Part shown: in pieces, positions 1 through 20,490 of the stretch
Layout: each line of letters opens with the position of its first letter
Position numbering within the stretch: position 1 is the first letter of the stretch
Assembly (NCBI GenBank): GCA_054600435.1
Contig: BAAIJX010000051.1
Span: 124,001-161,469 of the forward strand
Source: Neophaeotheca triangularis
Taxonomy: Eukaryota
Length of the DNA: 37,469 nucleotides
Direction: 5' to 3'
Program-made: the position numbers and the translations under genes
Notes under the pieces: generated by a model
What the model was told of the DNA's origin: nothing
Seen by the model: only the letters and a program-made list of their open reading frames with translations
Databases searched by the model: none

Positions 1-452
1 TCCTCTCGATCTTGCCCTCTCCGAAGAGAGTGATTGGCTCGCCGCGCTTGCGCAGCTCGAGCTTGACGTCGTTGTCGGCTGTAGGAATGTGCATCTGACG
101 CATGCGCTTATTGCGATCGAGCGCCTCGGCGGCAGCCATCCTCTGCGCATCGTACTGCGCCGGGTTTTGCTCTTGGAACGTGTAAGTGAAGTGAACTTTC
201 TCCACCTCTGGGGGAGGAGAGTCCTTACCCAGATCATGCATAGACACTCCCTCCTCGTCCTACGGTCATCAAGGTTAGTATGCTGTTGCGCCATGCCTCT
301 CACGCCGCTTTCTTCTCCAGCCTCACGCGACGGCTCTTCTTCTGCTGCGCAATCTGTGTGAGGAGCCGCCTGAGCATGAGGTACGGTGGGTACTGGCTTA
401 CCTTGCTATTGCCTTCCTCCACGTACGCCTGCCGAGACGGATGGATTGCCAT
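1..452 (-). CDS. PRP4: U4/U6 snRNP protein Prp4, 5' part (runs off the window start)
   Basis: ATG at 452 gives MAIHPSRQAYVEEGNSK. GTAAGC donor at 401; TACTAAC branch and TAG acceptor at 260. The next exon reads ...HIPTADNDVKLELRKRGEPITLFGEGKIER, matching the PRP4/SFM motif (PTDD..V...LR..GEPITLFGE). Confidence 0.85.
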
Positions 453-1233: not shown

Positions 1234-2353
1234 CTAATCGAAATAAGAAGAGTATGCGTTCAGAGCAGGTTGACCTCCCAGATGCACATACAATACATTG
1301 CTGCCCTTTGCAATCGTCCCCTCTTTGATCAGCTGAACCATACCGGCCATACTCTTTCCCTCGTACACAGGATCCGTGATGAGAGCATCAGTCTGCGCCG
1401 CGAGCTTCATAGCCTCGATAGTGCTGGGTCCTGGAATACCGTAGATACCCTCATGGAACCGCTCGTCGAGAATGATAGCGTCGTCGGGGATCTGGAGCTC
1501 GGGATCCAGGAGGTTGGCAGTCCGGCGCGCAATTCTCGCCACTTGATCTTTCGTCTCCGCAGGCTTGCCGGAAGCGTCGATGCCGATAACTTTCCTGCCC
1601 TTGCCCTCGGCCACTGCTCCCGTCAGGAGACCGGCATGCGACGATCCCGTGACGCTGCAGACGATGAGCGTGTCGAAGTAAATGCCCATCTGCTTCTCCT
1701 GTTCGGCCAATTCGACGACAAAGTTTGTGAAACCCAAGCCGCCGAGTTCGTGATCAGAAGCGCCCGCTGGGACGTAGTAGGGCTTGCCGCCTTTTTCGAC
1801 GACACTATCCATAGCTTCCTTGGTGGCGGTTTTGTGGCCGATGTGGAAGCCCTCCTGGTTGAGGCGGACATCGCCACCCATTATGCGCGACAAGAGGATG
1901 TTGCCGGTCTTTTCATAGAGTGGGGGATCAATTGGTACCCATTTTTCCTGAACCGTGACCGCTTTAAGACCACTGGCGGTAGCGACTGCGGTCACGGCTC
2001 TTGTGTGGTTGCTCTGGACGCCGCCAACGGACACGAGGGTGTCGCAGCTCTGAGCCAGTGCGTCGGCAACCAGGTACTCGAGTTTGCGGACCTTGTTGCC
2101 GCCGTAAGCCAGCCCACTGTTTGTTCGTTAGGGGTTATCGCTCTGTGAATCACACTTTACGGTGGCCATGTTCGCTCAAGGTCACCTACCTGTTGCAGTC
2201 ATCTCGTTTTGCGTAAATCTTGACTCCTCCATCAGGCGAAACAGTCTTGCTGAGACGAGGAAGCTCCTGTATCGGCGAGGGACCGAAAAGGAAGCTTTGT
2301 CTCGGGATGCTCTTCAGCTTCTCGATATAAGCGGGGCTTGTTGTTGTTGCCAT
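1234..2353 (-). CDS. acdS: 1-aminocyclopropane-1-carboxylate (ACC) deaminase, about 348 aa, 1 intron (2189-2117)
   Basis: Spliced product has [30 protein letters not shown] (PLP lysine), [28 protein letters not shown] and [12 protein letters not shown]. The Glu in YEGKS and the Leu in HLGG are the residues that distinguish true ACC deaminases from D-cysteine desulfhydrases. Confidence 0.95.
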
Positions 2354-2792
2354 TGCGAACGTAATTACTTTCAGCTGCAGTCTTTCTTCCAGGAAATGAT
2401 ATCTAAATAGGCTATGTCCACTGTGAGAAACAAGTTGCACTTTCTATAGATGTCGAGGTCCCTCCTATGTCGGAGGTTGTCCGTGACTCGCGGGCAAAGG
2501 CAGCATTCGTCTATCTCTGGACCCCGCAGGACTAGTCGAATAGTCTCACGCCATGCGTTCTTCTCGTGGAGATATACGTATCGGAGTACTACTAGCACTA
2601 TCGCATTGTCGCAGCTCTCTGTCGTTTAGATATCTTTGTCATTACGTACAAAGTTGCCAGGGCTTCGACAGACAGTTGTCCATATACATCCCCGCAATCG
2701 CCGCCTTGGTGAACGTTTGCCGACGAACTACAGAGAGAGCATCTATAGCCAAGAAGTCACAAGACCGACTCTCGACCATCATCACCCGCTTC

Positions 2793-4671
2793 TCACATTG
2801 AGTACCTGAACCTCGGGTTTTCGAAGTCCGTCAAGTCTTGAATCGCATCGCTCTCGGCTTCCTCGCCCAGCTCCCCGGTCCTTGCCCTCTGCTCTCCGGC
2901 TTCACCATCACGCTTCTTGTTGCGGTAGGTTAAAAGAGCACGCAGCACGAAACTAAGAACGACCTGCCCAATGGCACATGCCAGACACACGGATGCGCCG
3001 GTGGAATAGGTCGGAGCCTCTTCTGCCAGCCAAGCGTGAGGGCCGATGATATTGCCTTTGGAGTGTCGTTGTCAGTAAATGGAACGGCCCCCTGTGGATA
3101 CATAAGCGACTCACCAGCGCAATAACCAAGGAACACAAACGCCGTCGCCGTCACACGCTTAGTGTATCCGCCGACGTTGGTGGCAGGCAGCTGAAGCGCA
3201 AGTACCAAGCTTGCAACGTATGATGCGACGATGTAGTAAGCCAGCAGCATTCCGTTCCCGGCGGCGTCGTAGTCCATTTTCCAGAGCATCGAGAGGCCGA
3301 TGATGGTTGGACATAGGTACAAAGCCATGACATAGGTGCGGATGTTGTGGAAGCGACTGGCAAGGAATGGACCGGAGAAAACGAAGACGACTTGGAAAGC
3401 GCCTTGCGGGATGCCGTAGAGCGTTGTTAGAAGGGAGTCGTCGTTTGCAATACCCTTAACGACAAGCTTGCCAAAGTTGGCAATGCCTCCGTTCTGTAGT
3501 GGCCGATGGAGTAAGCTTGGGTTGCTCTGCGGTGAAATGGTTTTACAGTAAGATTACTTACGACAGTCTCGTTGAGTAGAGTAAACCAAAAAAGAAGCCA
3601 AATTTGGGGATCGGTCAACGCCTCTTTGATCTGATACCATTTGATCTTCGGGTTGTAGACGCCTGTCTGATTTTGCCTCGACCGCGCAATCAAGCGAGCC
3701 TTCTCGTCGTGGTTAAACTGCTTCGCAGACATGATGTTGTTCGGAAGGCGGAGGAGGAGTAGGATACCCCAGCAAACAGTGCAGCCACCGCAGATGATGT
3801 ATATGGCCCTCCACACGGCCAACCCTTTCGAAAACCCTACCTAATACCGTGTCAGCGACGTCAACGCAGCAGTGCTCATGTAGTGCTTACGCAATAGAAG
3901 AGAATTCCCCCGACACTGGACCCTACGCCGTTGAAGCAGTAGAACAGGCCTGCGCGAGCCGGCTGCTCTCGACGGGTGTAAAACTGTCCGACAATCATCA
4001 TGAATGTCGGTGTGACCAAAGACTCGCAGCAGCCCAGGAGGAAACGTGTGATCGCTAACCCCATGAAGTTGTGGCATGCGGCGGTTATTAGCATAATGCA
4101 TCCCCACGCGATGACAAATATGGAGATCACTCGACCGGTGGGAAAATGCTGCGCAAGGTAGGAAGCCGGCCATTCGAAGAAAAGGTAGCCTTCATTGCGG
4201 AATTAACATTAGCTCTGATCGCTTGACATGACAAAGGAAGCTTGACAAACCAAAATAGAAGATGCTAGCAAGCCATGAGTACTCGTATGATGTCGTGCCA
4301 GTCGTTTCAAAGAGGTCAAATACGGCTGAATAAGACAACGCCTGCCTGCTGTTAGACAACAATGAATACCACCAACTACCAAGCCTGCCTACCTGCTTAT
4401 CGATGTACTGGAGCATATAAGTACCACAAAGCAACGGCATCAATGTCCAGTCGACACGTCGACGGAGCTTCTTCATCGCTAGCTCGTCCTGTAACGCCTC
4501 ATTGAGGTAGGCGTGCGAGAAGCCATGTTCTTGTAAGAATTGCTCTGCTTTGTCGGTGCTCTTGATCTCGCCCGTTTTGATGTCCTCCGGGATCTCTTCG
4601 ACTGAAACGTGTTTCTTGTCATCGCTGATTGAGTGACGAGGTTTGTCAGTCATATCGATAGACTGAGACAT
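2793..4671 (-). CDS. MFS transporter, Dal5/allantoate permease (ACS) family, about 529 aa, 6 exons (4671-4393, 4341-4251, 4189-3891, 3840-3562, 3493-3115, 3055-2793)
   Basis: Motifs RRVDWTLMP..TYMLQYIDKQALSYSAVF, YSWLASIFYFGY..EWP, RFLLG..E, FYTRREQP.R, WYQIKEALTDPQIW, NVGGYTKR, GNIIGP and C-terminal DLTDFENPRFRY. All introns are GT..AG and the exons join in frame. Confidence 0.92.
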
Positions 4672-4891
4672 GGTAGTCGATTGTGTTGTCAATGCAGAGG
4701 GACCTTAAGCTGCAACCGAACGAGGTGTACGAGAACGGAGGTATCGGTTTGCCTAGTAGACTCCCCATCGACCTATATATCTTCGAGCTTCCATTCTGTT
4801 GGATGACGATCTCGCCAAGTACCAGTCAGGGACCAGGGTTCCCTCAGCCTGGCAACGCATGCCAGGAGCGTGTCGCTGTCGTTGATTCCCG

Positions 4892-5154
4892 TTATCATCC
4901 TACCCAGGAAGCTGAGCTTTTCGGCATACCACGGTGGGGTCGACGGTGCCGGCAAATGCAGCTCGTATCAATACACTGTGGATACCTCCAGCCATAGACG
5001 TTGATAGTGAAAGCCTCCCCACACGAAGCAATGGAGAAGCGATCCGCTTTCATGCTTGAACTCCACCTTGTTCCCAGCCCTATCTTCCCCGATGATGAGC
5101 CGGTCCAGGGTGTCGGTATATGTATCTGATAAGGTAATGTACACTGGTAGATAG
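4892..5154. promoter_or_regulatory. Cluster of HGATAR (GATA factor, AreA/NIT2-type) sites in the divergent permease/esterase promoter
   Basis: TTATCA 4892, TGATAG 5002, CTATCT 5080, TGATAA 5127 and AGATAG 5149, i.e. five sites in about 260 bp. The regulatory role is inferred. Confidence 0.4.
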
Positions 5155-5423
5155 TAGAGTGTTGGTATCGAGGGAGTTCTTGCTACGACCTGCGAGAACG
5201 GAGCTGGCATCCCCGATATCATACACGTTCGAACGGAGTCTGATACGGCCGACGGCGCGACGGCGCGAGCCCAAGCTTGCATTTTGCCAACTGTCCAGAG
5301 ATGAGATACTAGTCGTTGGTGTCGGTTGGAGTTTCTAATTCTTGCTGATTGTTGCAATCTCACCCTCATCTATTGCATCTAGCATCTCCTCAGGTATCTT
5401 TCGAAGAGCTTCAGCATTCCAGC

Positions 5424-7058
5424 ATGGCCACGAATCAACCAACCGTGGTGTTGAAACAAGGAACCTACAAAGGAAAGCTTGACCAAAACCCAGACTACCC
5501 AGTCCCCATCGAAGCCTGGCTCGGCATCCGCTACGCTCAAGCGCCTCTGGGCGAGCTTCGATTCGCGCGTCCCAAACCACTCCCGGCCAGCAACGACACC
5601 CTTGCCGCCACAGAGTTTGGATACCGCTGTCCGGGCAAGCAACTGCTAGCGGTAACCAACCTGCCAGAACCCAGCGAAGATTGCTTGACCGTCAATGTCT
5701 TCAGACAGCAGGACTCCGGGAATGCGAAGCCGTTGCCGGTGATGGTGTATCTGCACGGCGGAGCTTTCAATCGCGGTACCGCTGCCATGCACAACACCGG
5801 CGGCATGGTGGCGCATTCGGCCGAGCCCTTCATCGGCGTCAGCTTCAACTACCGCCTCGGCGCGTTGGGGTTCTTGAACTCACAGCTCACCGCCAAGGAA
5901 GGAGTGTTGAATCTCGGATTGCACGATCAACGGCTGTTGATGGAATGGGTTCAGGAGAACATTGCGGCCTTTGGCGGCGACGCTGATAATGTTACTTTGG
6001 TTGGCCTTAGCGCTGGAGCTCATTCGATCGCGCATCATATCATGAACGTCAATGAGAAAAGGGAGCTTTTCCACAAAGCTGTCATTGAGTCTGGCGCCTC
6101 GACTTCGCGAGCCGTGCATCCCTTTGACAGCAAACTGCACGAAGCGCAATTCCAGGAGTTTCTGCAAGCCGCTGGATGCCCGGAGGGTATTCACGGAAGA
6201 GAAATCATGATGTTCCTGAGGCAACTTCCAACCGAGATCGTGCAAGCCGCGCAAACAAAAGTCTTCAATGCCTACAATCCCTCCATCAGATGGGCCTGGC
6301 AACCCGTCATAGATGGCGAGATTATAAGTCGACGTCCTATTGATGCCTGGAAGTCCGGCGACTGGCATAAAGTCCCCATCATAACGGGTTTCAACCACAA
6401 CGAAGGCAGCATGTACGTCCCAAAGACCATGTCGCAAAGCACAGACTTCCGGGACTTCTTCGCCACCCTCCTACCACAGCTAACTCCAGCCGATCTCGAG
6501 ACCCTCGACACACTCTACCCGGACCCGGCGAAAGATGCAAATTCTTCCTATGTAGAAAGACGTGATTCGAGCTTCGGCCTGGGTCCGCAGTACAAGCGCG
6601 TCGAAGCCGCTTACGGCCAATACGCGTACGTGGCGCCGGTGCGGCAAACCGCCCAGCTGGCTAGCAAAGGCCAAGGACCGCCAGTCTATCTGTACCACTG
6701 GGCTTTGCAAAGCTCAATCGCCAACGGCGCCAATCATGGAGACCAAATGTGGTATGAAGGAATGGATAAGACGTTAAGGAAGGTTTCCCCTACGCACGAG
6801 CAAGTGGCGAGATATTTCCACGACTATGTCTGCAGCTTTATCGTCGCTGGGGACCCTAATGCGGTCAAAGGGGCTTCGAGCCACCGACCTGAATGGAATG
6901 CTTTCCGAGATGGTAGCAAGACCATGGTATTTGGAGAGGGCAACGACGAGCGTATTGGAGGGAGCAAAACCGGAGTTGTGGCAGAGTGTCGAGAAGACTC
7001 GTGGGCTAGAAGAGAAGTCGATTTCTGGTGGGAGAGAAGCGAGCATACTGAAGTTTGA
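5424..7058 (+). CDS. Type-B carboxylesterase/lipase family serine hydrolase, about 544 aa, intronless, no signal peptide
   Basis: First ATG is at 5424 (the ORF-track start at 5349 is TTG). Motifs WLGIRYA..P.G.LRF, SEDCLTVNVFR, oxyanion HGGAF, NYRLGALGF, NIAAFGGD..NVTL, nucleophile GLSAG, acid NHNEG and His in GANHGD. Confidence 0.93.
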   Translation: MATNQPTVVLKQGTYKGKLDQNPDYPVPIEAWLGIRYAQAPLGELRFARPKPLPASNDTLAATEFGYRCPGKQLLAVTNLPEPSEDCLTVNVFRQQDSGNAKPLPVMVYLHGGAFNRGTAAMHNTGGMVAHSAEPFIGVSFNYRLGALGFLNSQLTAKEGVLNLGLHDQRLLMEWVQENIAAFGGDADNVTLVGLSAGAHSIAHHIMNVNEKRELFHKAVIESGASTSRAVHPFDSKLHEAQFQEFLQAAGCPEGIHGREIMMFLRQLPTEIVQAAQTKVFNAYNPSIRWAWQPVIDGEIISRRPIDAWKSGDWHKVPIITGFNHNEGSMYVPKTMSQSTDFRDFFATLLPQLTPADLETLDTLYPDPAKDANSSYVERRDSSFGLGPQYKRVEAAYGQYAYVAPVRQTAQLASKGQGPPVYLYHWALQSSIANGANHGDQMWYEGMDKTLRKVSPTHEQVARYFHDYVCSFIVAGDPNAVKGASSHRPEWNAFRDGSKTMVFGEGNDERIGGSKTGVVAECREDSWARREVDFWWERSEHTEV

Positions 7059-7124: not shown

Positions 7125-9923
7125 TTAGAACACCCCATCCTCACCAATATTGAACACGCCGTTCTTTTTCCTTTCGACCGCCCAGCGCTCACACCACGCC
7201 TTCATCTTCTCCCTCGTCTTCGCATTGCCAACATTTACCGTTGGTATGATCTTCTCAATCCTCAAAGCGCAGCAAAACATCGTCAACTCTCTGAAACTCG
7301 AGTGTTCTGAATATGGCACCCCAAAGCAGCTGGCGCGGCTCGTACTTCCCCTCTGCGGCACCAAGTCCTTCATGCTATAATTGCTCCTCCAATTATCAGA
7401 ATAGAGCACAGTTTGCACAGTCGGCGAGTCAGTGAACCGCGAGGTGGGAGGTCTATAATTCCAGCCGCTTGGTCTGAAACCAACGGCGCGCGTGAAATGT
7501 GGAAAGTAGTCCTTGAGATAGTCGTCAAGCGTCTCGGCGCGGATCTCGAACAGCGGTGTCATGTGTACTTGCGCCTCACGGGGGTCCCTCGTGAGGAGAG
7601 CGTTGAGCTCAGGGTCCTCGAGCGCTGCGCAGATTCGCTGTTTGGCTGCTGGGGCGTAGATCTTGGACTTGAGTGCTTTTGCGATTCCAAGACATATGCG
7701 CTCCTTGCCGATACTGTACGTCCCTACAACGACTAGGAGGCGTCCGCGGCTGTTCTTGGTGTTTGTAGAAGATAGTATCTGCTGGCTGGCTTTTGGCGCG
7801 CGCTCGATCTTCATGCCGTCTGGGTCGACGTTCGGTTCGACTTCTTCTTGAATCTCTGGGTTTGATTCTTTGCGAACAAACTTAGCCATACCCTCGCCTG
7901 CACGTTGACGTTTCATTTGTTCCCAGCCGTCGCTTTCGTCGGGTGCGACCTTGTTCAAGCTTACACACATATCGCTACAAGCAGTGATGACGGCTTCTTG
8001 GCTCGGAAAAGCGTATTTTGGGTTCAGGTAAGTGGTGTCGAGATAGCAAACATCAATCTTTTGTTCGCGCTGCTTTCCAGTGATACTGTCCTGGACGTCA
8101 GGAATGAGCAAGGGATGCTGAATGTGTGCTTTACAGGCTCTAAAATCGCCACAATGTAAGACCCGCTGTAAACGAGGTTCCCCGTTCGACTTCTTGCCCA
8201 CGATCTTCTCGAATAGATAGAGAGACGACCCGGGGCAGTGATTGGCGGATATCATGGTAACTTTGACCCCTTTGGTGCCGGGCACTTCTACTGTTTCCTC
8301 GAAGTCGAGGCCAATAACCCACTTTGGATCTACGCGTAGTTGCTGGCGAACGAGATTGGCGGTGACACGCGAACAGTATATTGGACCATGGCACCAGGTG
8401 CTTGTCAGACCGACATAGTGATCCGAATGGAAGTGGCTTAAGAAGTATGCCTGACACCCAGCAACAGCACCGTATCGGAAAGCATCCACGCAGATGAATA
8501 GACCAGGCAGGATTTTGTAGAAAGGACACATTCGCTGATATGCGGGCTTGCCTCGGGCGGCGTGCTCAGAAGCTGCGGCAGACGCCCATGCGGCGTCCTC
8601 GGCGTGGCCGGACATCAACTGGCTGAAGGCGGATCCTCCATTGGTCGAATTAGGTTGGCTTAGTGTGAAAGGGTTTTCTTGACCAGGTTTGGGTGGCCGA
8701 ACGGGTCGTTTGAATTTCGTCGCTGGGCCGGGGCTTTCTTGCTTAAGCTGTTCTTGCTTGACTTCTCGTCTATCCGTACCGGATACAGCTGTTGAATTAT
8801 CGGCCTTGGGCAGAGGTGTTGGATTTCCGTCTAGGCAATTGTTGACATGGATAGCTGCGTCCTGCTCGCCAATTCCGCTAAGACTGACGCTGCACAGGGG
8901 GCAGGTGGTGCCTTCCGTGCCTGTATCTGCTGGACCGGGATGAGGCTGATCCAGTCCCTCGGCAGGTACATTGTCATAGTCGTCCTCGTCATCCTCCCCT
9001 TCCATCCTTGCCTGCTCTTCCATGTACCGTCTTTCCATGAACTCGTCTCCTCCCTCGAACAGGTCCTCGTCGAAATCTTCTATTCCTTCAAAGTCCTTGA
9101 ATTCGTCAATACCCGGACCATAGCTTGTCTCGTCCTTGATCAGCGGAGGACGTTGGGGGGAACCAGACCTTGATTGAGGAGCTATTGGCTTTGTGGTCGC
9201 CATTTCCGCGTTTTCGGGATGCGTGGGAAGAGTAAAGGCTTCACCCTCAGGAAGGGAAACGGTAGATTCCTGCTTTACAGCAATGACATCAGGGTCTTCC
9301 CTTTCCTCATCATATGAGTCCTGCTCCGGCTCGCTCTCAGAGTCGTCCAGAAACGGGCCCGACTGTCTTGAGATCAAGTCAGGTTTCGACGGAGTTTCTG
9401 CGTTAGACTGCGATGCAGCTTGTCCATCCGCTTCATCCAGAGAGCCTGCGCTAATCCTTCTTCTCTTGTTGGAGCCTCCAGCTTCGTTGAAACGGGTCTC
9501 TCCTTGCGTGTGTACATTGTTCATCTCTGGCTCGTCTTCTCCATTCCGGTCGCCCTGACTGCTCTGCCGCTCCCTCGACGCCCGCCCACTATCCGCAACG
9601 AACAAGCTGGAACCATCTGCCTCACTTTCCGACTTCTTAAAGAAACTCAGAATGCTACTGTTCGGCTTGCCCTTCTCTTTCCCTTTGGCACTTCCTGCAG
9701 GCTTTTTCGCGCTTCCGCTCGGGCCCTGTCGCCCAATAGTAGGAAGAGGGGTCTCTTTTCCGAGTTTCGATTTTGTGGCAGCCATCTTTGGGGGTGGAAC
9801 GACCGGTGGCACTGCGAGAGAAAAGGGCGTTTTTGGAGGTCCGCCTGGTGGCGAAGGCGGCCTACCTACAGATGGTACTGCGTGCTCGCCGCTGTCGTTA
9901 TTTTCACGAGGCTTGCGAAACAT
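7125..9923 (-). CDS. PSO2: DNA interstrand cross-link repair nuclease SNM1/PSO2 (metallo-beta-lactamase + beta-CASP, UBZ finger)
   Basis: CPFYK, VDAFRYG, FLSHFHSDHY, ANHCPGS, LHCGDFRA, YLDTTYL, GTYSIGKE and VPYSEHSS; UBZ-like CPLC...HVNNCLD. 932-aa intronless ORF. Confidence 0.95.
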   Translation of the reverse strand: MFRKPRENNDSGEHAVPSVGRPPSPPGGPPKTPFSLAVPPVVPPPKMAATKSKLGKETPLPTIGRQGPSGSAKKPAGSAKGKEKGKPNSSILSFFKKSESEADGSSLFVADSGRASRERQSSQGDRNGEDEPEMNNVHTQGETRFNEAGGSNKRRRISAGSLDEADGQAASQSNAETPSKPDLISRQSGPFLDDSESEPEQDSYDEEREDPDVIAVKQESTVSLPEGEAFTLPTHPENAEMATTKPIAPQSRSGSPQRPPLIKDETSYGPGIDEFKDFEGIEDFDEDLFEGGDEFMERRYMEEQARMEGEDDEDDYDNVPAEGLDQPHPGPADTGTEGTTCPLCSVSLSGIGEQDAAIHVNNCLDGNPTPLPKADNSTAVSGTDRREVKQEQLKQESPGPATKFKRPVRPPKPGQENPFTLSQPNSTNGGSAFSQLMSGHAEDAAWASAAASEHAARGKPAYQRMCPFYKILPGLFICVDAFRYGAVAGCQAYFLSHFHSDHYVGLTSTWCHGPIYCSRVTANLVRQQLRVDPKWVIGLDFEETVEVPGTKGVKVTMISANHCPGSSLYLFEKIVGKKSNGEPRLQRVLHCGDFRACKAHIQHPLLIPDVQDSITGKQREQKIDVCYLDTTYLNPKYAFPSQEAVITACSDMCVSLNKVAPDESDGWEQMKRQRAGEGMAKFVRKESNPEIQEEVEPNVDPDGMKIERAPKASQQILSSTNTKNSRGRLLVVVGTYSIGKERICLGIAKALKSKIYAPAAKQRICAALEDPELNALLTRDPREAQVHMTPLFEIRAETLDDYLKDYFPHFTRAVGFRPSGWNYRPPTSRFTDSPTVQTVLYSDNWRSNYSMKDLVPQRGSTSRASCFGVPYSEHSSFRELTMFCCALRIEKIIPTVNVGNAKTREKMKAWCERWAVERKKNGVFNIGEDGVF

Positions 9924-10037
9924 GTCACGGATGTAAGGTCCATGCTAAGCGTGCAGATGGGGCATTGTTGTCGGATCGTTGTCAACCGTTCAAAGGCGAT
10001 CTCAGGTAGGTAGTACCTATACGTGCATTCAATGTAA

Positions 10038-11114: not shown

Positions 11115-12804
11115 ATGCACTCTCAGGCCCTCGCCCTTGCGTTCATCCTCCCTCTCATTTACGCTCAGAGTGGCGGCCCCCAATTCCAGAATGGCTACGC
11201 CGACCGGCAGCTTCCTCTTGAGCAGGATAGCGATCTCGTTTCGGCCAACTTTCCCGACGTAGAAGGCATTGAGCTCTTGTCACCCGCTTTTCTGAACCCA
11301 GAGAACGTGCCTGAGGGGTTTTCCAATGGCACGAGCACAGCAACGCCCCTGCTGACACAAGGTGAGCACGCGGCTCCTTAATTAGCTAATCCGTTGGCAG
11401 ACTGCTGACTGATGATCAGATACCTTCTTGCGAACGCTTGCAGGGCGTAATGACTGGCTCACTTACTATCAGGGAGATTTCACCTCTGAAGAGGCTCGAG
11501 CTATCCCCTATCTGTATCTGACCAACGATGCAAAGCCGAGCGACGCTTCTCATAAAATCCGCATCTTCCTCCAGGGGCATATCCACGGCAACGAACCTGC
11601 GGGTGAGGAGGGCATTCTCGCACTCCTCGGCAAGATGGACGCTAACGCTACATACGCGCAATCAATCCTCGAAGCAGTCGACATCATGATTGTACCGCGG
11701 AACAACCCTGACGGCGTCGCTTACTTCCAAAGGCAACTCGCTAGTGGCTTTGACCCCAACCGCGACTGGGTTATTCTCGGGAGGCAGCCGACACGCGATA
11801 TCAAGTCGTTGTACTCCAGCTTCTCCCCTCACATCTTCGTCGACTGCCACGAATACACCGCGAGCACTCTCCTAGGTCCCGACAGTGACCTTTTGAAGTC
11901 GGAAGACGGGCAGATCTTGGGCATGACCAACCTCAACATCCATCAGGATATTCTCGAGTTGCAGAACGGTCTCTTCCTCGAGGCCATGGCAGAGTCGCTC
12001 GAGAGTCGCAACTTGCGGACCGGTTCCTACTACACCGCTGCGGCAGGCGAGGAACTCTATCTGACGCAGCCTGACTCCAACAGCCAGTACGCTGGTAGCG
12101 CCGCCGGGCTTTACCAAACCGTTTCCCTACTCACCGAGACCCGCGGCATCCGTCTTGGGGACCAGCATTTCCAGCGCCGCACCGCAAGCACCCTTTTCTT
12201 GCTGGAGGGCATCATCCAGACCGCTGTCAACAACGCCCAAGATGTCTACGAGATCATCGAAGGGGCGCGCGCAGACTTTATCGCCAATGATAACCCTGTC
12301 GTCGTCACCGATTCCCGCCGCGAGGAGAATGTGACTTGGGAGTTCATCGACGCCAACACCGGCGACCTCGTCACCCGCGACGCCGTCTTCCTCAACAACA
12401 CCCCACCAGACGCAAATATCACACGCGCCCGCCCGGAAGCCTACGTCTTCTCCCGCGCGTGGGCCGACGTCGCCGAGCGTCTCCGCATTTCCGGCGTTCA
12501 CGTCGAGACCCTCGACGCCGACTTCACCGGCATCGTGGAGGCTCTCACCATCGACGCGGCAACTTTGGCAGATGCGAGATTTGAGGGCGTTGCGCAATTG
12601 TCTGTCACGGCGACAACCGCTAACCGAAGGGAAGTCAGCATTCCTGCTGGAGGCTTCTGGGTCTCGACCAGGCAGCTCAACGCCGCATTCGCGATGGTGT
12701 TGTTGGAACCGGAGAATATTTCTTCGGCCGCGACTTATAACATCGTCCCAGTCGACGAAGAGGACGAGTGGCCTATCTTCAGGGTGATGAAGGAGGATTG
12801 TTGA
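11115..12804 (+). CDS. Secreted zinc carboxypeptidase, family M14, about 543 aa, 1 intron (11362-11419)
   Basis: Signal peptide MHSQALALAFILPLIYAQ. GTGAGC..GCTGAC..CAG intron joins in frame. Motifs HGNE (Zn ligands), NPDG, DPNRD, DCHE and catalytic ETRG. TATAAA about 65 bp upstream. Confidence 0.92.
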
Positions 12805-13258
12805 TGACTTTCACGGGGGACAGTAATTCAATGTTTATTCTGCCTTTACATGAACTCACTTCTTGAGGAGAGGCTATGCGTATCTTGATGTCAGTTCTAT
12901 GAGAACTTCACATTTCCGAATATTTTCATGGGAGACGGTCGTGGATAGTCTCAAACAGTCCCTGGGGCTGGAATCGGTAGGCGCCTCAAGCTCGTTTCGC
13001 GGTACCCCCACTTTTTCACGTGACGATCTGTTCGAGCTCTCCACTTGGCAGTTAGAGCAGCCCAGCGGCCGAGGGAATGGAAAGACTCGGGAGCGATTAC
13101 AAACACGTCCGGAGCTTTGTAACGACATCACATCTACAGCGGCATTTAACTGCCATTAGTATTTCCAATACAAAGCTAAGTATCTGTGCCATTTCTAGTA
13201 GCCTCTTGTCCTTTCTGCAGTACACGCATCGCAGCTATAAAAGCGACGAGCCGAGTCC

Positions 13259-14404
13259 ATGAAGTGGTTTCTCGCCATCTTAATCGCAGTAGTTGGAATC
13301 TGCTCATCACTCTACCGCCAGCAAGAAACAGCAATCTCATACGCCCATTACATGCGCAACCTACTACGCCCCTCGACACTATCAAATCTCACCAAAACGA
13401 ACCCACTCACTGCTACGCAGTCTCTTTCCGCAATGTCGCCCTCCAAATCCTTCGTCGGCCTCCCAGTCATCCCCCCAGAGGACCCCTCCCTTAACGCCCC
13501 CAACCCCGCCCCACGCGCCATAAACACAACCTTCGAAGCCCTTGAGCAAGGCGAAGGCGCCGGTGCAACTGTCCGCCGCAGCATCGGCGTCCCCAAACTC
13601 CGCAACTTCACGCCCTTCCTCATGCTCGACCACTTCACTGTCGCGCCGGGCGCGGGCTTCCCAGACCACCCCCACCGCGGTCAAGAAACCATCACCTACG
13701 TGCTCAGCGGCGCCATCGACCACGAAGACTTCGCTGGCAACAAGGGCACTATGGAGGCGGGGGGCTTGCAATTCATGACCGCCGGCAAGGGTATCGTGCA
13801 CGCCGAGATGCCCCACGATCACGGCGACGGCAGCAGCAATGTCGGCATACAGATGTGGGTAGACTTGCCCAACGAGCTCAAGGACTGCGAGCCCCGATAC
13901 CGAAATGTGCTAGCGGAGGAGATCCCCGTCGCGCAAGTGGACAGCGGCAAAGTGACGGTGAAGGTCATTTCCGGCCGCTCCCACGGCGTCGACTCGCTGC
14001 AAGAGCTCGCTTACACGCCCGTCTGGCTACTGGACGTCTCCATCAACCCCGGCGGCAAGATCACGCAACCTCTGCCGGCGGGCTGGAACGCTTTCGCTTA
14101 CACCCTCAGCGGGACTACGACTTTCGATACCGGGGCGGAGATGCGGCAAGTGCAACAATACCACAACACAGTGTTTGAGCAAAAGGGCGACGCAGTCGTC
14201 ATGAGCGTGCCGGAGGACGGTGAAGCTGCGAGGCTTATTTTGGTGGCGGGACTGCCGCTGGATCAGAAGATTGTACAATATGGCCCTTTTGTTGTCACCG
14301 ATACGCAGCAGATTCGCCAGGCTATGTTTGATTATCAGACTTTTTCGAATGGGTTTGAGAGGGCTAGAGGGTGGGAGAGTGAGATTGGGAAGGTTATGGG
14401 TTAG
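13259..14404 (+). CDS. Pirin family protein (bicupin, iron-binding); true start uncertain (13259, 13352 or 13433)
   Basis: EGAGATVRRSIG, PFLMLDH, GFPDHPHRGQETITY, HEDFAGNKG, QFMTAGKGIVHAEMP, QMWVDLP and QYGPFV. Confidence 0.95.
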   Translation: MKWFLAILIAVVGICSSLYRQQETAISYAHYMRNLLRPSTLSNLTKTNPLTATQSLSAMSPSKSFVGLPVIPPEDPSLNAPNPAPRAINTTFEALEQGEGAGATVRRSIGVPKLRNFTPFLMLDHFTVAPGAGFPDHPHRGQETITYVLSGAIDHEDFAGNKGTMEAGGLQFMTAGKGIVHAEMPHDHGDGSSNVGIQMWVDLPNELKDCEPRYRNVLAEEIPVAQVDSGKVTVKVISGRSHGVDSLQELAYTPVWLLDVSINPGGKITQPLPAGWNAFAYTLSGTTTFDTGAEMRQVQQYHNTVFEQKGDAVVMSVPEDGEAARLILVAGLPLDQKIVQYGPFVVTDTQQIRQAMFDYQTFSNGFERARGWESEIGKVMG

Positions 14405-16050: not shown

Positions 16051-17902
16051 TCAAGTAGTGAATCGATACTCCGGGTGCTTTTCACCCAACTCCATGACTT
16101 GCTCCTCAGGCATCCCTTCCAAAAAATAATCGCGCTCCCCTCGGTCTCGCTTCTTGTTCTCTCGCTTATAGTGAATCTCCAGCGTGATCATACCAACCAG
16201 CCCCAGCGCCAATAGACCAATAGTCGCACCATAACCCGGGTAGTAAGTCGGTGCGTACACATCCTCGAACATCCAAGGCGAGGCGACACCAGCCGCGTTC
16301 CCGATTGTGAGCTGCAGCCCGGACATGATGGCTCTCTTTCCATAGCGCGGGTTATTCACAGTCAACCAGGCAAGCTGGATGCCGCCGGCGGAGTATAGGC
16401 CCATGGCCACGAACATGCACCCAGCGTAGGACATCGCGACGCCTTGATTCGCGATGAGGAGGCAGTATCCGAATATGGAGACGGAAATCGAGACAATGGT
16501 GAAGTAGCCACGACGTTGGACCTTGTCGCTTAGCCGAGCGTTGCAGACGTAGACGATGGCGCCGGCGGAGTAGATGGGGACGGTCATTGCTTGCACCTCC
16601 GCTGCGGTCCATGTTCCCATACCGTTTATAACGGTAGGAAGGAACACCGAGAAAGAGTACAGCATGTTGTTGATGCAGTATTGGATGATCGCATACGCCC
16701 AAGTGGTCCAGTCTTTCAACCCATCGATGACGTCCGCTTTGACCAGATTATTGGCGTTGTGCGCATGTCCCAACTCCTTCAATCGCATCTTGACCATGTT
16801 TCGTTTGTCTTCTTCGCTCAAGAATTTGGCTGACTCTGGGCTATTCGGAAGTACGAAAGGGACAATCAGTCCGGTGACTACGGTGGGAATCCCGTTGATC
16901 AGGATGATCCAGCGCCAGGCGCGCCATCCGGCATATCCATCTATGTAACTGATGCCATAAGATACTAGACCGCCGGCAATGCCCGATGCAGCGGACGTGG
17001 CGAAGAAATAGGCGACCCTAACAGCAATTCTGCGCTTACCATAGAACATGGTTAGGTACAGGATTACGCCGGGGAACAGTCCCGCTGTGCTGTGTTAGCC
17101 GTTGACGTTGTGGTAGCTCGTCTCTAATGCCGTACCTTCGAAGAGTCCAAGGAGAAGACGACAGGCGACCATCGAGCCCAAGCTATCCACAAAAGCAGTA
17201 AAGGTAGCAACAATACCCCAAGCCAACACGAGACCGGCCAGGTAACGGGCTGGTTGCATCCGCTTGATGATCATGTTTGAAGGGGCTTCGAACAACTGAA
17301 CAAGATCTCGTTAGCATGTCTGATATTCAAGAATACTAGGGGCTGTCCAGTTCCAAAGCGACCCACGCAGTACGTAATGAACAGGACGGCCACAGCGATC
17401 CGATAGTCCTGCCCGTCGTCGCTCATGCCCAGGTCCTCTTCCAATCCAAACTAGATTTTGTCAGTCGAAGATTCCCGCGGAGAAGAAAGGACACGATACC
17501 AAACGACCGTTTCCGATGTTTACTTGGGTGCAATAGTCAGCCAGTGGTCCCGGCTCCCATGGATCGCTTCTGGGGCATATACGTACCTCGATCCATCATA
17601 TTCATCAAGTAAATCCAGACTTTCGTAGCCTGCGGTTAGCAAAGGAAATTCGCGGTGAAAAGGCCGAGGGAGCACTCACCAACCATGGGAATGATGCGAC
17701 GATCGAGCTTCGCAAGAATTTTCCTTTCGGTCGCCTCGTCTACTTCCAGGTCTTCGAATTCGTCCGCAGTCTTGGGCAGCGGCAGGTGAGCATTCGCCAT
17801 GTGCTCTGGATCATTGTTGATGTCGTCGCGAGATGAGTTCGATGTTCCGTCACCTTCAGGAGAGACCTTCTCCCGATGCTCGTCACGTTGCCCTTTCGGC
17901 AT
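16051..17902 (-). CDS. MFS transporter, allantoate/nicotinate (Dal5/Tna1-like) family, about 518 aa, 6 exons (17902-17680, 17619-17587, 17522-17500, 17450-17367, 17295-17136, 17084-16051)
   Basis: Spliced N-terminus reads KLDRRIIPMVVWIYLMNMMDRVNIGNGRLFGLEEDLG. Also FEAPSN, RLLLGLFEAGLFPG, WRWI..I.G, NNPRYGKRA and C-terminal ELGEKHPEYRFT. Confidence 0.92.
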
Positions 17903-19313: not shown

Positions 19314-20024
19314 TCACCCCTCTACCTCCTTAACCCCCTCATCATCCGTAACCAACCTCGCTCGATTAAACTCTCCAGTCCTGGGCAAACTCACATGCAC
19401 ATCCGCCACCACCGCCATCTGCACCCTCACCTCCCCATCGCCCCTGACCCCCAAAACATGCCCACCCCTAGACCGTCCATCATCCACAAAATGTAAATGC
19501 TCCCCAGCAACCCCAAACCCCTGCCAATTCGCGGGCGTCCTAAACCCGACAATGGTACCTCTCAACCCGCCAAACTCATCCACGACCTGGTTCTTCCCGA
19601 GCTCACTAAGCGGTTGCCCGGGATACTCAGCGCCATGCACGGTCCTGCATTTCAACCACTCAAAAGCCCCCTCGATCCGATACGTCACGAACAGGTTCCT
19701 CGCCTGGCCTTGGGTGAAATCCTCCAAAACCGCGTCAATGTCCTCCTTACGCTCGAGTTTCACGCTCACGGTTTTCTCCGGTACGAACTGAGTGACTACG
19801 GCGAAAGGAATTTGGTCCGTGGGCTCGGCGATGCGGATGTGGCCGTGCGGTTGCAGTTGGTAGATTGTGTTGTCGAGCATTAGCAGCTCGCCGTTCATGT
19901 TGACGAAGGTGCCGAGCCCTTGGTTGCCCTTTTTGATGAGCTCGGAAGCTGGAATTCCTGAGCCGCTGACGCCGTCCATCAGGGCGTTGAGGAGCGAGTA
20001 TTGGAAAATGTGGTTTGGTTCCAT
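19314..20024 (-). CDS. Alpha-acetolactate decarboxylase (BudA/AlsD family), about 236 aa, intronless CDS
   Basis: IFQYSLLNALMDG, GLGTF..MNGEL, PFAVVT.F, GTIVGFRTP, and metal ligands in GEHLHF...GGH. First ATG is at 20024 (the ORF-track start is TTG). Confidence 0.92.
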   Translation of the reverse strand: MEPNHIFQYSLLNALMDGVSGSGIPASELIKKGNQGLGTFVNMNGELLMLDNTIYQLQPHGHIRIAEPTDQIPFAVVTQFVPEKTVSVKLERKEDIDAVLEDFTQGQARNLFVTYRIEGAFEWLKCRTVHGAEYPGQPLSELGKNQVVDEFGGLRGTIVGFRTPANWQGFGVAGEHLHFVDDGRSRGGHVLGVRGDGEVRVQMAVVADVHVSLPRTGEFNRARLVTDDEGVKEVEG

Positions 20025-20490
20025 GTTGGCGGTGGGCTGGACGTTGGGGAGAGCTTGTTGGAACAAGGATTGCCAGGAAAATGGGAAAGATTGCTATGCT
20101 TGGACGTTGCGCAGAGGATCGCAGCGAGTATCTGTCTGGTACTTACTTCTGCTCTTACATTGGGGAGGCACTGTGGCGTTATTGGAAGTTGAAAGTAAAA
20201 GACATGTGCAGTTCAAGTTGACTTCCGGTCAGTGCCGAGAAGCAGCTAAGCCCTAAGAGTCACTAGTCTAAGTACGCTTGACTTCACTTCACTCCACCGA
20301 ACGCCTTGTTAAGCTATCGCAAAGGGGTATCATGCTCCGTTCTTTTTTCCTTTTCTCCAAGTCCACAATTGACAAACGCCTCGCAAGCTATCAGCCGCCC
20401 TCATATGAAAATTCGCCCCTTGGCAAAAAGCAAGGCCCATAATTGTGCCTGCACCGTGTCCTTGCTCCGTGCGCGCCTCAAGCAAGTCAT

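Follow-up and report, generated by a model that had tools for sequence, protein, structure and literature searches.

The deaminase (ACCD) that acts on 1-aminocyclopropane-1-carboxylate (ACC) is the textbook tool with which microbes lower plant ethylene, and free ACC is only part of the plant ACC pool. Catabolic clusters that combine a permease with enzymes are also familiar from fungi, as in the yeast DAL cluster and those for quinate and nicotinate. The present study characterised a locus of the fungus Neophaeotheca triangularis in which genes for an ACCD, a major facilitator superfamily (MFS) permease and a type-B carboxylesterase (hereafter, the esterase) are bounded by PRP4 and PSO2. The three genes occupy positions 1234-7058 of a stretch of 37,469 nucleotides (GenBank assembly GCA_054600435.1, contig BAAIJX010000051.1, positions 124,001 to 161,469 of the forward strand), the whole of which is called the window throughout. 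The locus would constitute a new kind of catabolic gene cluster in fungi, in which permease and esterase make up a conserved core of two genes and the third member varies.

Among bacteria, the actinobacteria Saccharopolyspora erythraea and Streptomyces hygroscopicus have acdS in what seems to be an operon with genes for an MFS protein and an M20 peptidase, and other described neighbourhoods are of the acdR-acdS and GntR-acdS kinds (Nascimento et al., PMC4048297). The same source describes two groups of fungal ACCDs and reports D-Cys, D-Ser and further D-amino acids as additional substrates of the enzyme (PMC4048297). In Fusarium verticillioides, 2-benzoxazolinone induces the ACCD gene FVEG_06024, which is situated near PDX1 and PDX2; the genes shown with it in the table of that study include no carboxylesterase (PMC10512309). 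On the plant side, malonyl-ACC is described as the major ACC conjugate, with a hydrolase activity that has no known gene (PMC4227472). No description of a fungal cluster of the kind presented here was found in the open-access literature searched.

The actinobacterial trio follows the same logic as the fungal locus, joining a transporter and a hydrolase of N-acyl or peptide bonds to an ACCD, but uses an M20 metallopeptidase instead of a serine carboxylesterase, and its transporter belongs to another MFS subfamily. Unlike the acdR-acdS and GntR-acdS arrangements, the fungal locus has no regulator gene, and the cluster in the window likewise lacks a pathway-specific transcription factor. It resembles the DAL, quinate and nicotinate clusters in that enzymes of catabolism lie next to a permease and that a divergent promoter is present, whereas it differs from them in that the conserved core comprises two genes only, the third member being ACCD, a D-amino-acid oxidase (DAAO) or none.

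Results

Conservation of the permease-esterase pair

Besides the window, esterase and permease orthologues share a contig in 12 named assemblies representing 11 species, co-location being read, as a crude proxy, from identical longest-contig sizes per protein cluster together with locus tags. The species are Aspergillus avenaceus, Aureobasidium subglaciale, Dothistroma septosporum, Hortaea werneckii (twice), Lecanosticta acicola, Neoarthrinium moseri, Neodothiora populina, Pleurostoma richardsiae, Pseudocercospora eumusae, Septoria linicola and Venturia nashicola. In N. populina (005677/005678) and N. moseri (013801/013802), the two genes carry successive locus tags.

A scan of metagenome contigs with the esterase alignment yielded 46 loci, 36 of which were non-redundant. 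A permease orthologue (48-65% identity) adjoins the esterase in 11 of these 36, and in 8 of the 12 loci that offer at least 3 kb of flank on both sides. The two genes are arranged head to head, as in the window, in L001, L004, L018, L020 and L034, while the permease lies downstream of the esterase on the same strand in L005/23, L006, L008, L010, L012 and L028. Judged by their nearest named sequences, the pair-bearing loci are affiliated with Dothideomycetes, are Penicillium citrinum-like, Exophiala-like or Leotiomycete-like, or belong to a clade with Paraphoma-nested permeases. The pair was seen across Dothideomycetes, Eurotiomycetes and Sordariomycetes and at one Leotiomycete-like locus, and permease and esterase very probably constitute a functional unit.

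Two side observations concern individual loci of this set. The esterase of L004 is nearly identical to P. citrinum P0056 (tree distance 0.02), and the ACCD of P. citrinum is the reference in PMC4048297. The esterases of L020 and L022, both of the anchored type described below, are closely related to each other (tree distance ~0.16), yet a permease stands head to head with that of L020 and there is none within 10 kb of that of L022, a contrast showing that the pair can break quickly.

Anchored and cytosolic forms of the esterase

Members of the type-B carboxylesterase family are usually secretory or lumenal and carry two conserved disulfides, a pattern from which the window esterase departs. 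The 544-aa protein, identical to database protein P0001, has a COesterase domain (PF00135; 321 bits, profile positions 2-491 of 515), and its best solved relative is EstA of Aspergillus niger (1ukc_A, E 3.6e-57), a CE10 enzyme with which it shares the full-length domain, the Ser-Glu-His triad and the HGGAF oxyanion motif. In an alignment of 12 orthologous esterases, the window's included, the Ser of GLSAG, the Glu of NEGS, the His of HG and the HGGAF motif are invariant (12/12) and align to EstA. These motifs supply the catalytic Ser, Glu and His and the oxyanion-hole glycines, so that the intact triad claimed in an earlier note on this DNA is borne out. Compared with fungal type-B carboxylesterases, the window protein is devoid of a signal peptide or anchor, a crude hydropathy scan finding zero hydrophobic segments at its N-terminus, and has lost one disulfide Cys, Phe replacing the fourth Cys of the family's two disulfides. 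That note had also described the esterase as cytosolic and free of a signal peptide; with both the N-terminal anchor and the fourth Cys missing, it is predicted to work in the cytosol.

The orthologues fall into two forms. Five of the 12 (Septoria, Zasmidium, Neodothiora and two Aspergillus) are anchored, with an N-terminal extension that includes a hydrophobic stretch, and all five keep both Cys of the second disulfide ('..GC..' and '..CLR..' motifs). The remaining seven (the window, its 80% relative, Teratosphaeria, Hortaea, Neoarthrinium, P. citrinum and Fusarium solani) start at the catalytic domain, and every one of them has Phe or Tyr at the second Cys of that disulfide. Among the metagenome loci, L018, L020 and L037 encode a hydrophobic anchor at the start together with four Cys, and L001, L004, L006 and L034 are without an anchor and have lost the fourth Cys. 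The loss took different courses in two clades, the Dothideomycete clade of the window keeping the first Cys and the Penicillium/Sordariomycete-type clade having lost this one too, and the switch from the anchored to the cytosolic form therefore took place at least twice. The possibility that the short form is an annotation artefact lacking a signal-peptide exon was considered and rejected: upstream of the ATG, the frame is already closed at a distance of 25 codons, and all aligned short orthologues (7/7) have also lost the disulfide Cys.

The form of the esterase is associated with the presence of the permease. Thirteen loci of the ortholog clade are without the fourth Cys, of which nine have the permease (L001, L004, L023, L006, L008, L010, L012, L028 and L034) and the other four (L015, L017, L032 and L036) have flanks of 2.8 kb or less. 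The comparison set comprised nine anchored-type loci with at least 3 kb of flank on one side; a permease neighbour is present in L018 and L020, and not in L011, L016, L021, L022, L029, L037 and L042. A permease is accordingly found next door at 9/9 cytosolic-type versus 2/9 anchored-type loci (Fisher one-sided p = 0.0011, with counts uncorrected for relatedness), the value becoming p = 0.012 if the outliers L026 and L040, which are placed outside the main clade and have no permease, join the Cys-lacking group. The link between the cytosolic form and the permease fits import followed by intracellular hydrolysis.

As a separate observation, PEX11 adjoins an anchored-type esterase in five non-redundant loci, lying downstream in L011, L018, L021 and L022 and upstream in L037 (7924-8818), and was seen at none of the cytosolic-type loci. 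This neighbour may reflect old synteny or hint at where the anchored form works.

The permease

The 529-aa permease model corresponds to database protein P0241 (523 aa, hypothetical protein, Neophaeotheca triangularis), which begins at the second Met and is six N-terminal residues shorter, being otherwise identical; P0241 carries a precomputed PF07690 assignment (MFS fold). Orthologues are 56-69% identical over the full length, and some are named allantoate permease by their sources. The Dal5/allantoate-permease group of the anion:cation symporter family includes yeast Dal5, Tna1, Fen2 and Vht1. Like the members of this group, the window permease is an MFS_1 protein, and its best solved relative, the D-galactonate transporter DgoT (6e9n_A), is an anion:cation symporter, although the match is weak (E 1.2e-4). 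A place in the Dal5 group is suggested indirectly by these ortholog names and by the DgoT match.

The window ACC deaminase

The ACCD model of 348 aa contains zero internal stops and a PALP domain (PF00291, 105 bits). Its best solved relatives are the enzymes of Pseudomonas (1rqx_A, E 9e-107, 360 bits) and of the yeast Cyberlindnera saturnus (1f2d_A, E 8e-89, 301 bits), D-cysteine desulfhydrases matching far more weakly (E 6e-52 or worse). Residues Lys51, Ser78, Tyr294/295, Glu295/296 and Leu322 are reported to separate true ACCD from D-cysteine desulfhydrase and related enzymes (Nascimento et al., PMC4048297). In a pairwise alignment with 1rqx_A, all five (Lys51, Ser78, Tyr294, Glu295 and Leu322) are identical in the window protein, which agrees with the Glu/Leu signature of true ACCD claimed earlier. 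Judged by its sequence, the window enzyme is a true-type ACC deaminase. It shares with the Pseudomonas and Cyberlindnera AcdS the fold-type II pyridoxal-phosphate family and the full set of diagnostic residues, but is encoded by a eukaryotic gene with an intron and belongs to a bacterial-like fungal group.

A 347-aa protein of H. werneckii, named putative ACCD, is 89% identical to the window ACCD (gap-free), against 82% for Schizophyllum and 61% for an actinobacterial ACCD. The clade as a whole is patchy: the homolog table contains Dothideomycetes of Capnodiales/Mycosphaerellales type (81-91% identity) and Basidiomycota (Schizophyllum, Fistulina and Tremellales yeasts; 70-86%), followed by bacteria (~62-64%). 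This distribution fits the bacterial-origin group of fungal AcdS set out in PMC4048297. It was also observed that, among the homologs of ACCD exon 2, the closest was 91% identical (H. werneckii) and none reached 100%, whereas permease and esterase each have a 100% database twin on a 161,469-bp contig. The deposited annotation may therefore have missed the ACCD gene or modelled it in another way.

The variable third gene

In one well-supported clade of the esterase tree, a DAAO gene stands tail to tail directly after the esterase. It lies between esterase and permease, head to head with the latter, in four non-redundant loci (L006, L010, L012 and L028), and in L015 and L024 it follows the esterase on contigs that end before any permease. 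A weak trace of DAAO (36%) was seen between esterase and permease in L023/L005, and none in L008. The product matches PF01266, with a fungal D-amino-acid oxidase (7ct4, E 1.7e-96) as its best solved relative. All these loci fall in one clade, and the neighbourhood is therefore taken as a single event in evolution, although it has persisted in copies with only 70-79% identity. DAAO can be regarded as functionally analogous to ACCD, since each deaminates non-L amino acids, with a 2-oxo acid and ammonia as products.

When the non-redundant metagenome loci were searched by tblastn with the window ACCD, a homolog was detected in 2/36. In L032, an ACCD gene truncated by the contig end begins ~300 bp downstream of a cytosolic-type esterase, both being on one strand; L037 has a complete ACCD with the true-ACCD residues, followed by genes for a Zn2Cys6 transcription factor and PEX11 and then by an anchored-type esterase, 5.4 kb upstream of which ACCD is located. 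Both proteins are 49-54% identical to the window ACCD (49% for L037), which points to a separate lineage and a separate recruitment, and their split from the window ACCD matches the two fungal ACCD groups outlined in PMC4048297. Different ACCD lineages have thus come to lie beside one and the same esterase family, in three gene orders and in three parts of the esterase tree. For 303,327 bp of non-redundant flank, and under an assumed density of 1-3 ACCD genes per 30 Mb, ~0.01-0.03 ACCD neighbours would be expected, against the two observed (Poisson P(>=2) 5e-5 to 4.5e-4). Although ACCD falls outside the conserved unit, its association with the esterase recurs.

Gene models and surroundings of the locus

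The coordinates of the gene models are given in Table 1. All three genes were found between PRP4 and PSO2 where the earlier note had placed them, and the gene identities hold, the three being a true-type ACCD, an MFS permease and a type-B carboxylesterase. Its estimates of ~440 bp between permease and acdS and of 750 bp for the divergent permease/esterase promoter compare with measured values of 439 and 752 bp.

Table 1. Positions of the features of the locus in the window.
Feature	Positions	Strand	Details
PRP4 domain	2-259	-	Flank, domain match
ACC deaminase gene	1234..2353	-	2 exons, 348 aa, PALP domain
ACCD exon 1	2353..2190	-	
ACCD intron	2117-2189	-	73 nt, GT..AG
ACCD exon 2	2116..1234	-	Stop included
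Spacer from permease stop to ACCD ATG (ACCD promoter)	2354..2792	-	439 bp, read directly
MFS permease gene	2793..4671	-	Six exons, 529 aa, MFS_1 matches on exons
Permease exons	4671..4393, 4341..4251, 4189..3891, 3840..3562, 3493..3115, 3055..2793	-	
Divergent promoter common to permease and esterase	4672..5423	.	752 bp ATG to ATG, read directly
Type-B carboxylesterase gene	5424..7058	+	Single exon, 544 aa, COesterase domain
DRMBL/metallo-beta-lactamase protein, PSO2/SNM1 type	7125-9944	-	Flank, domain match

HGATAR sites occur at 4.6 and 6.7 per kb in the two promoters versus 1.9 in the whole window, the latter being a mostly coding and hence unfair control. Beyond PSO2, the window contains an M14 carboxypeptidase-like gene (11416-12804, +), a pirin gene (13241-14404, +) and a gene for a second MFS transporter (16051-17094, -), and nothing connects any of them to the three-gene stretch. 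The alpha-acetolactate decarboxylase domain, of a mainly bacterial family, gives a strong match (238 bits) to an open reading frame at 19314-20093 (-).

Neighbourhoods of bacterial acdS

The bacterial sample consisted of the best 80 of at least 558 acdS matches, mostly from Streptomyces and other actinobacteria. A crude gene caller based on GC content at third codon positions recovered acdS in 68/80, several large open reading frames and Streptomyces duplicates being left out of the neighbour scan. The common neighbour was a GntR regulator, located directly upstream of acdS in 29 loci. In three loci of Acidimicrobiia type (L050, L052 and L054), genes for a 2-oxoglutarate-Fe(II) oxygenase and an M90 metallopeptidase were observed directly downstream of acdS, an arrangement not met in the literature consulted.

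Discussion

The reading put forward here is that the locus encodes an uptake-plus-hydrolysis module for an anionic conjugate, releasing ACC or a D-type amino acid that a third enzyme deaminates. Its core is an old, widely conserved two-gene module, in which a permease of the anion:cation-symporter type would import the conjugate for cytosolic hydrolysis by a type-B carboxylesterase from which the membrane anchor and one disulfide have been lost. This would set free ACC, or an amino acid related to it and either achiral or of D-type, for conversion into a 2-oxo acid and ammonia by ACCD, a third step that would be swappable between ACCD and DAAO; in N. triangularis, a bacterial-like ACCD has come to sit 439 bp downstream of the permease. 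That the three genes serve one pathway, that transport runs in the import direction and that the substrate is of this nature are all points that we infer, and the reading as a whole is advanced tentatively, as a serious possibility that falls somewhat short of being probable. A functional tie between ACCD and the permease-esterase pair in particular is conceivable, and is held with comparable reserve.

Several results weigh against it. The homolog tables of ACCD and esterase have zero contigs in common, and in Hortaea, Teratosphaeria, Pseudocercospora and Lecanosticta the ACCD ortholog is unlinked from the esterase: the respective contigs measure 211,547 vs 121,086 bp in Teratosphaeria nubilosa, 75,205 vs 124,177 bp in P. 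eumusae and 950,488 vs 470,673 bp in L. acicola, while in H. werneckii the ACCD contigs are of 195,380 and 299,305 bp and all seven esterase clusters are on contigs of at most 98,950 bp. No PRP4, PSO2 or ACCD synteny like that of the window was found in the metagenome loci; L001, a close relative of the window pair, shows no ACCD, PRP4 or PSO2 in the 771 bp past its permease, and L004, with the pair present, has no ACCD within 10 kb on either side. Neither ACCD nor DAAO occurs in 6/11 permease-bearing loci (L001, L004, L008, L018, L020 and L034), and L037 is the weaker of the two other ACCD cases, its esterase being anchored and no permease lying near. The ACCD promoter and the divergent promoter (2354-2792 vs 4672-5423) share words of at most 10 nt, a length matched by 106/300 shuffles and thus not above chance. 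The quick trees of esterase and permease are not cleanly congruent, since the esterases of L034 and of the DAAO clade group with Sordariomycete and Penicillium sequences and their permeases with Dothideomycete, Exophiala and Paraphoma ones. Tblastn with the fungal esterase and permease gave zero matches in the best 80 of at least 558 bacterial acdS loci, and no M20 peptidase was present among the scanned genes up to two positions from acdS in 68 bacterial loci. Furthermore, type-B carboxylesterases are mainly esterases, amide hydrolysis being a minority activity.

Much of this evidence would equally suit a pair that acts as a module for an unrelated anionic ester, such as a plant or microbial carboxylic-acid ester, next to which ACCD is a bystander placed by rearrangement. 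The permease-bearing loci devoid of both deaminating enzymes, the unlinked ACCD of the four named relatives and the promoters without a common motif above chance all favour such an explanation, as do the heterogeneous other neighbours of the pair. It is opposed by the ACCD of another lineage beside the esterase in two of the 36 loci, well above the chance expectation, and by DAAO, an analogous enzyme for non-L amino acids, lying between esterase and permease in a whole clade. On balance, a bystander ACCD is a realistic option that we would not go so far as to call probable. Coincidence of three unrelated genes would be easier to accept in gene-dense fungal genomes and between flanks that, like PRP4 and PSO2, are housekeeping genes; for the pair it is contradicted by conservation across Dothideomycetes, Eurotiomycetes, Sordariomycetes and a Leotiomycete-like locus, and for the trio we consider it highly improbable. 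The genes might instead serve the fungus's own metabolism or detoxification, and not the scavenging of nutrients, the permease exporting or re-importing a self-made or xenobiotic acid, the esterase trimming it and ACCD or DAAO protecting against toxic D-type amino acids. Removal of such amino acids by ACCD (PMC4048297) and by DAAO and induction of the F. verticillioides ACCD by a benzoxazolinone xenobiotic (PMC10512309) would agree with this, but the tie between anchor loss and the permease fits import followed by cytosolic hydrolysis, and biosynthetic genes are absent nearby, so that little credence is given to it.

The proposal of the earlier note is accordingly retained in part. It had proposed to check whether the three genes co-occur in other genomes, which is the case for the pair, conserved across Pezizomycotina, and not for the trio, ACCD being on other contigs in relatives. 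Its route of uptake, de-acylation and deamination gains from the conserved pair and from the recurrence of ACCD or DAAO near the esterase, and loses ACCD as a conserved member.

If the uptake-plus-hydrolysis module does handle conjugated amino acids, candidate substrates would be N-malonyl-ACC and N-malonyl-D-amino acids, both of which are made by plants in related reactions. A substrate that is specifically an ACC conjugate, malonyl-ACC or a sibling, seems unlikely at present, and it would be a long shot to regard the esterase as an N-malonyl-ACC/N-malonyl-D-amino-acid hydrolase and the permease as the carrier of these compounds, operating with a swappable deaminating enzyme. That the fungus taps the plant ACC pool is likewise conjecture. 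Should the malonyl reading be true, it would represent the first route with defined genes by which microbes consume the forms in which plants mainly store ACC and D-amino acids, and the malonyl-ACC hydrolase activity would gain a sequence. More generally, if conjugates of ACC or of D-amino acids are what the module handles, our view of the ways in which fungi exploit or influence the plant ACC pool would be broadened, and the type-B carboxylesterases of this widespread orphan family in fungi would be given a function together with the permeases paired with them. Should the link to ACC fail, the switch to a cytosolic form, made at least twice, and the constant permease partner offer a handle for finding the substrate of the pair.

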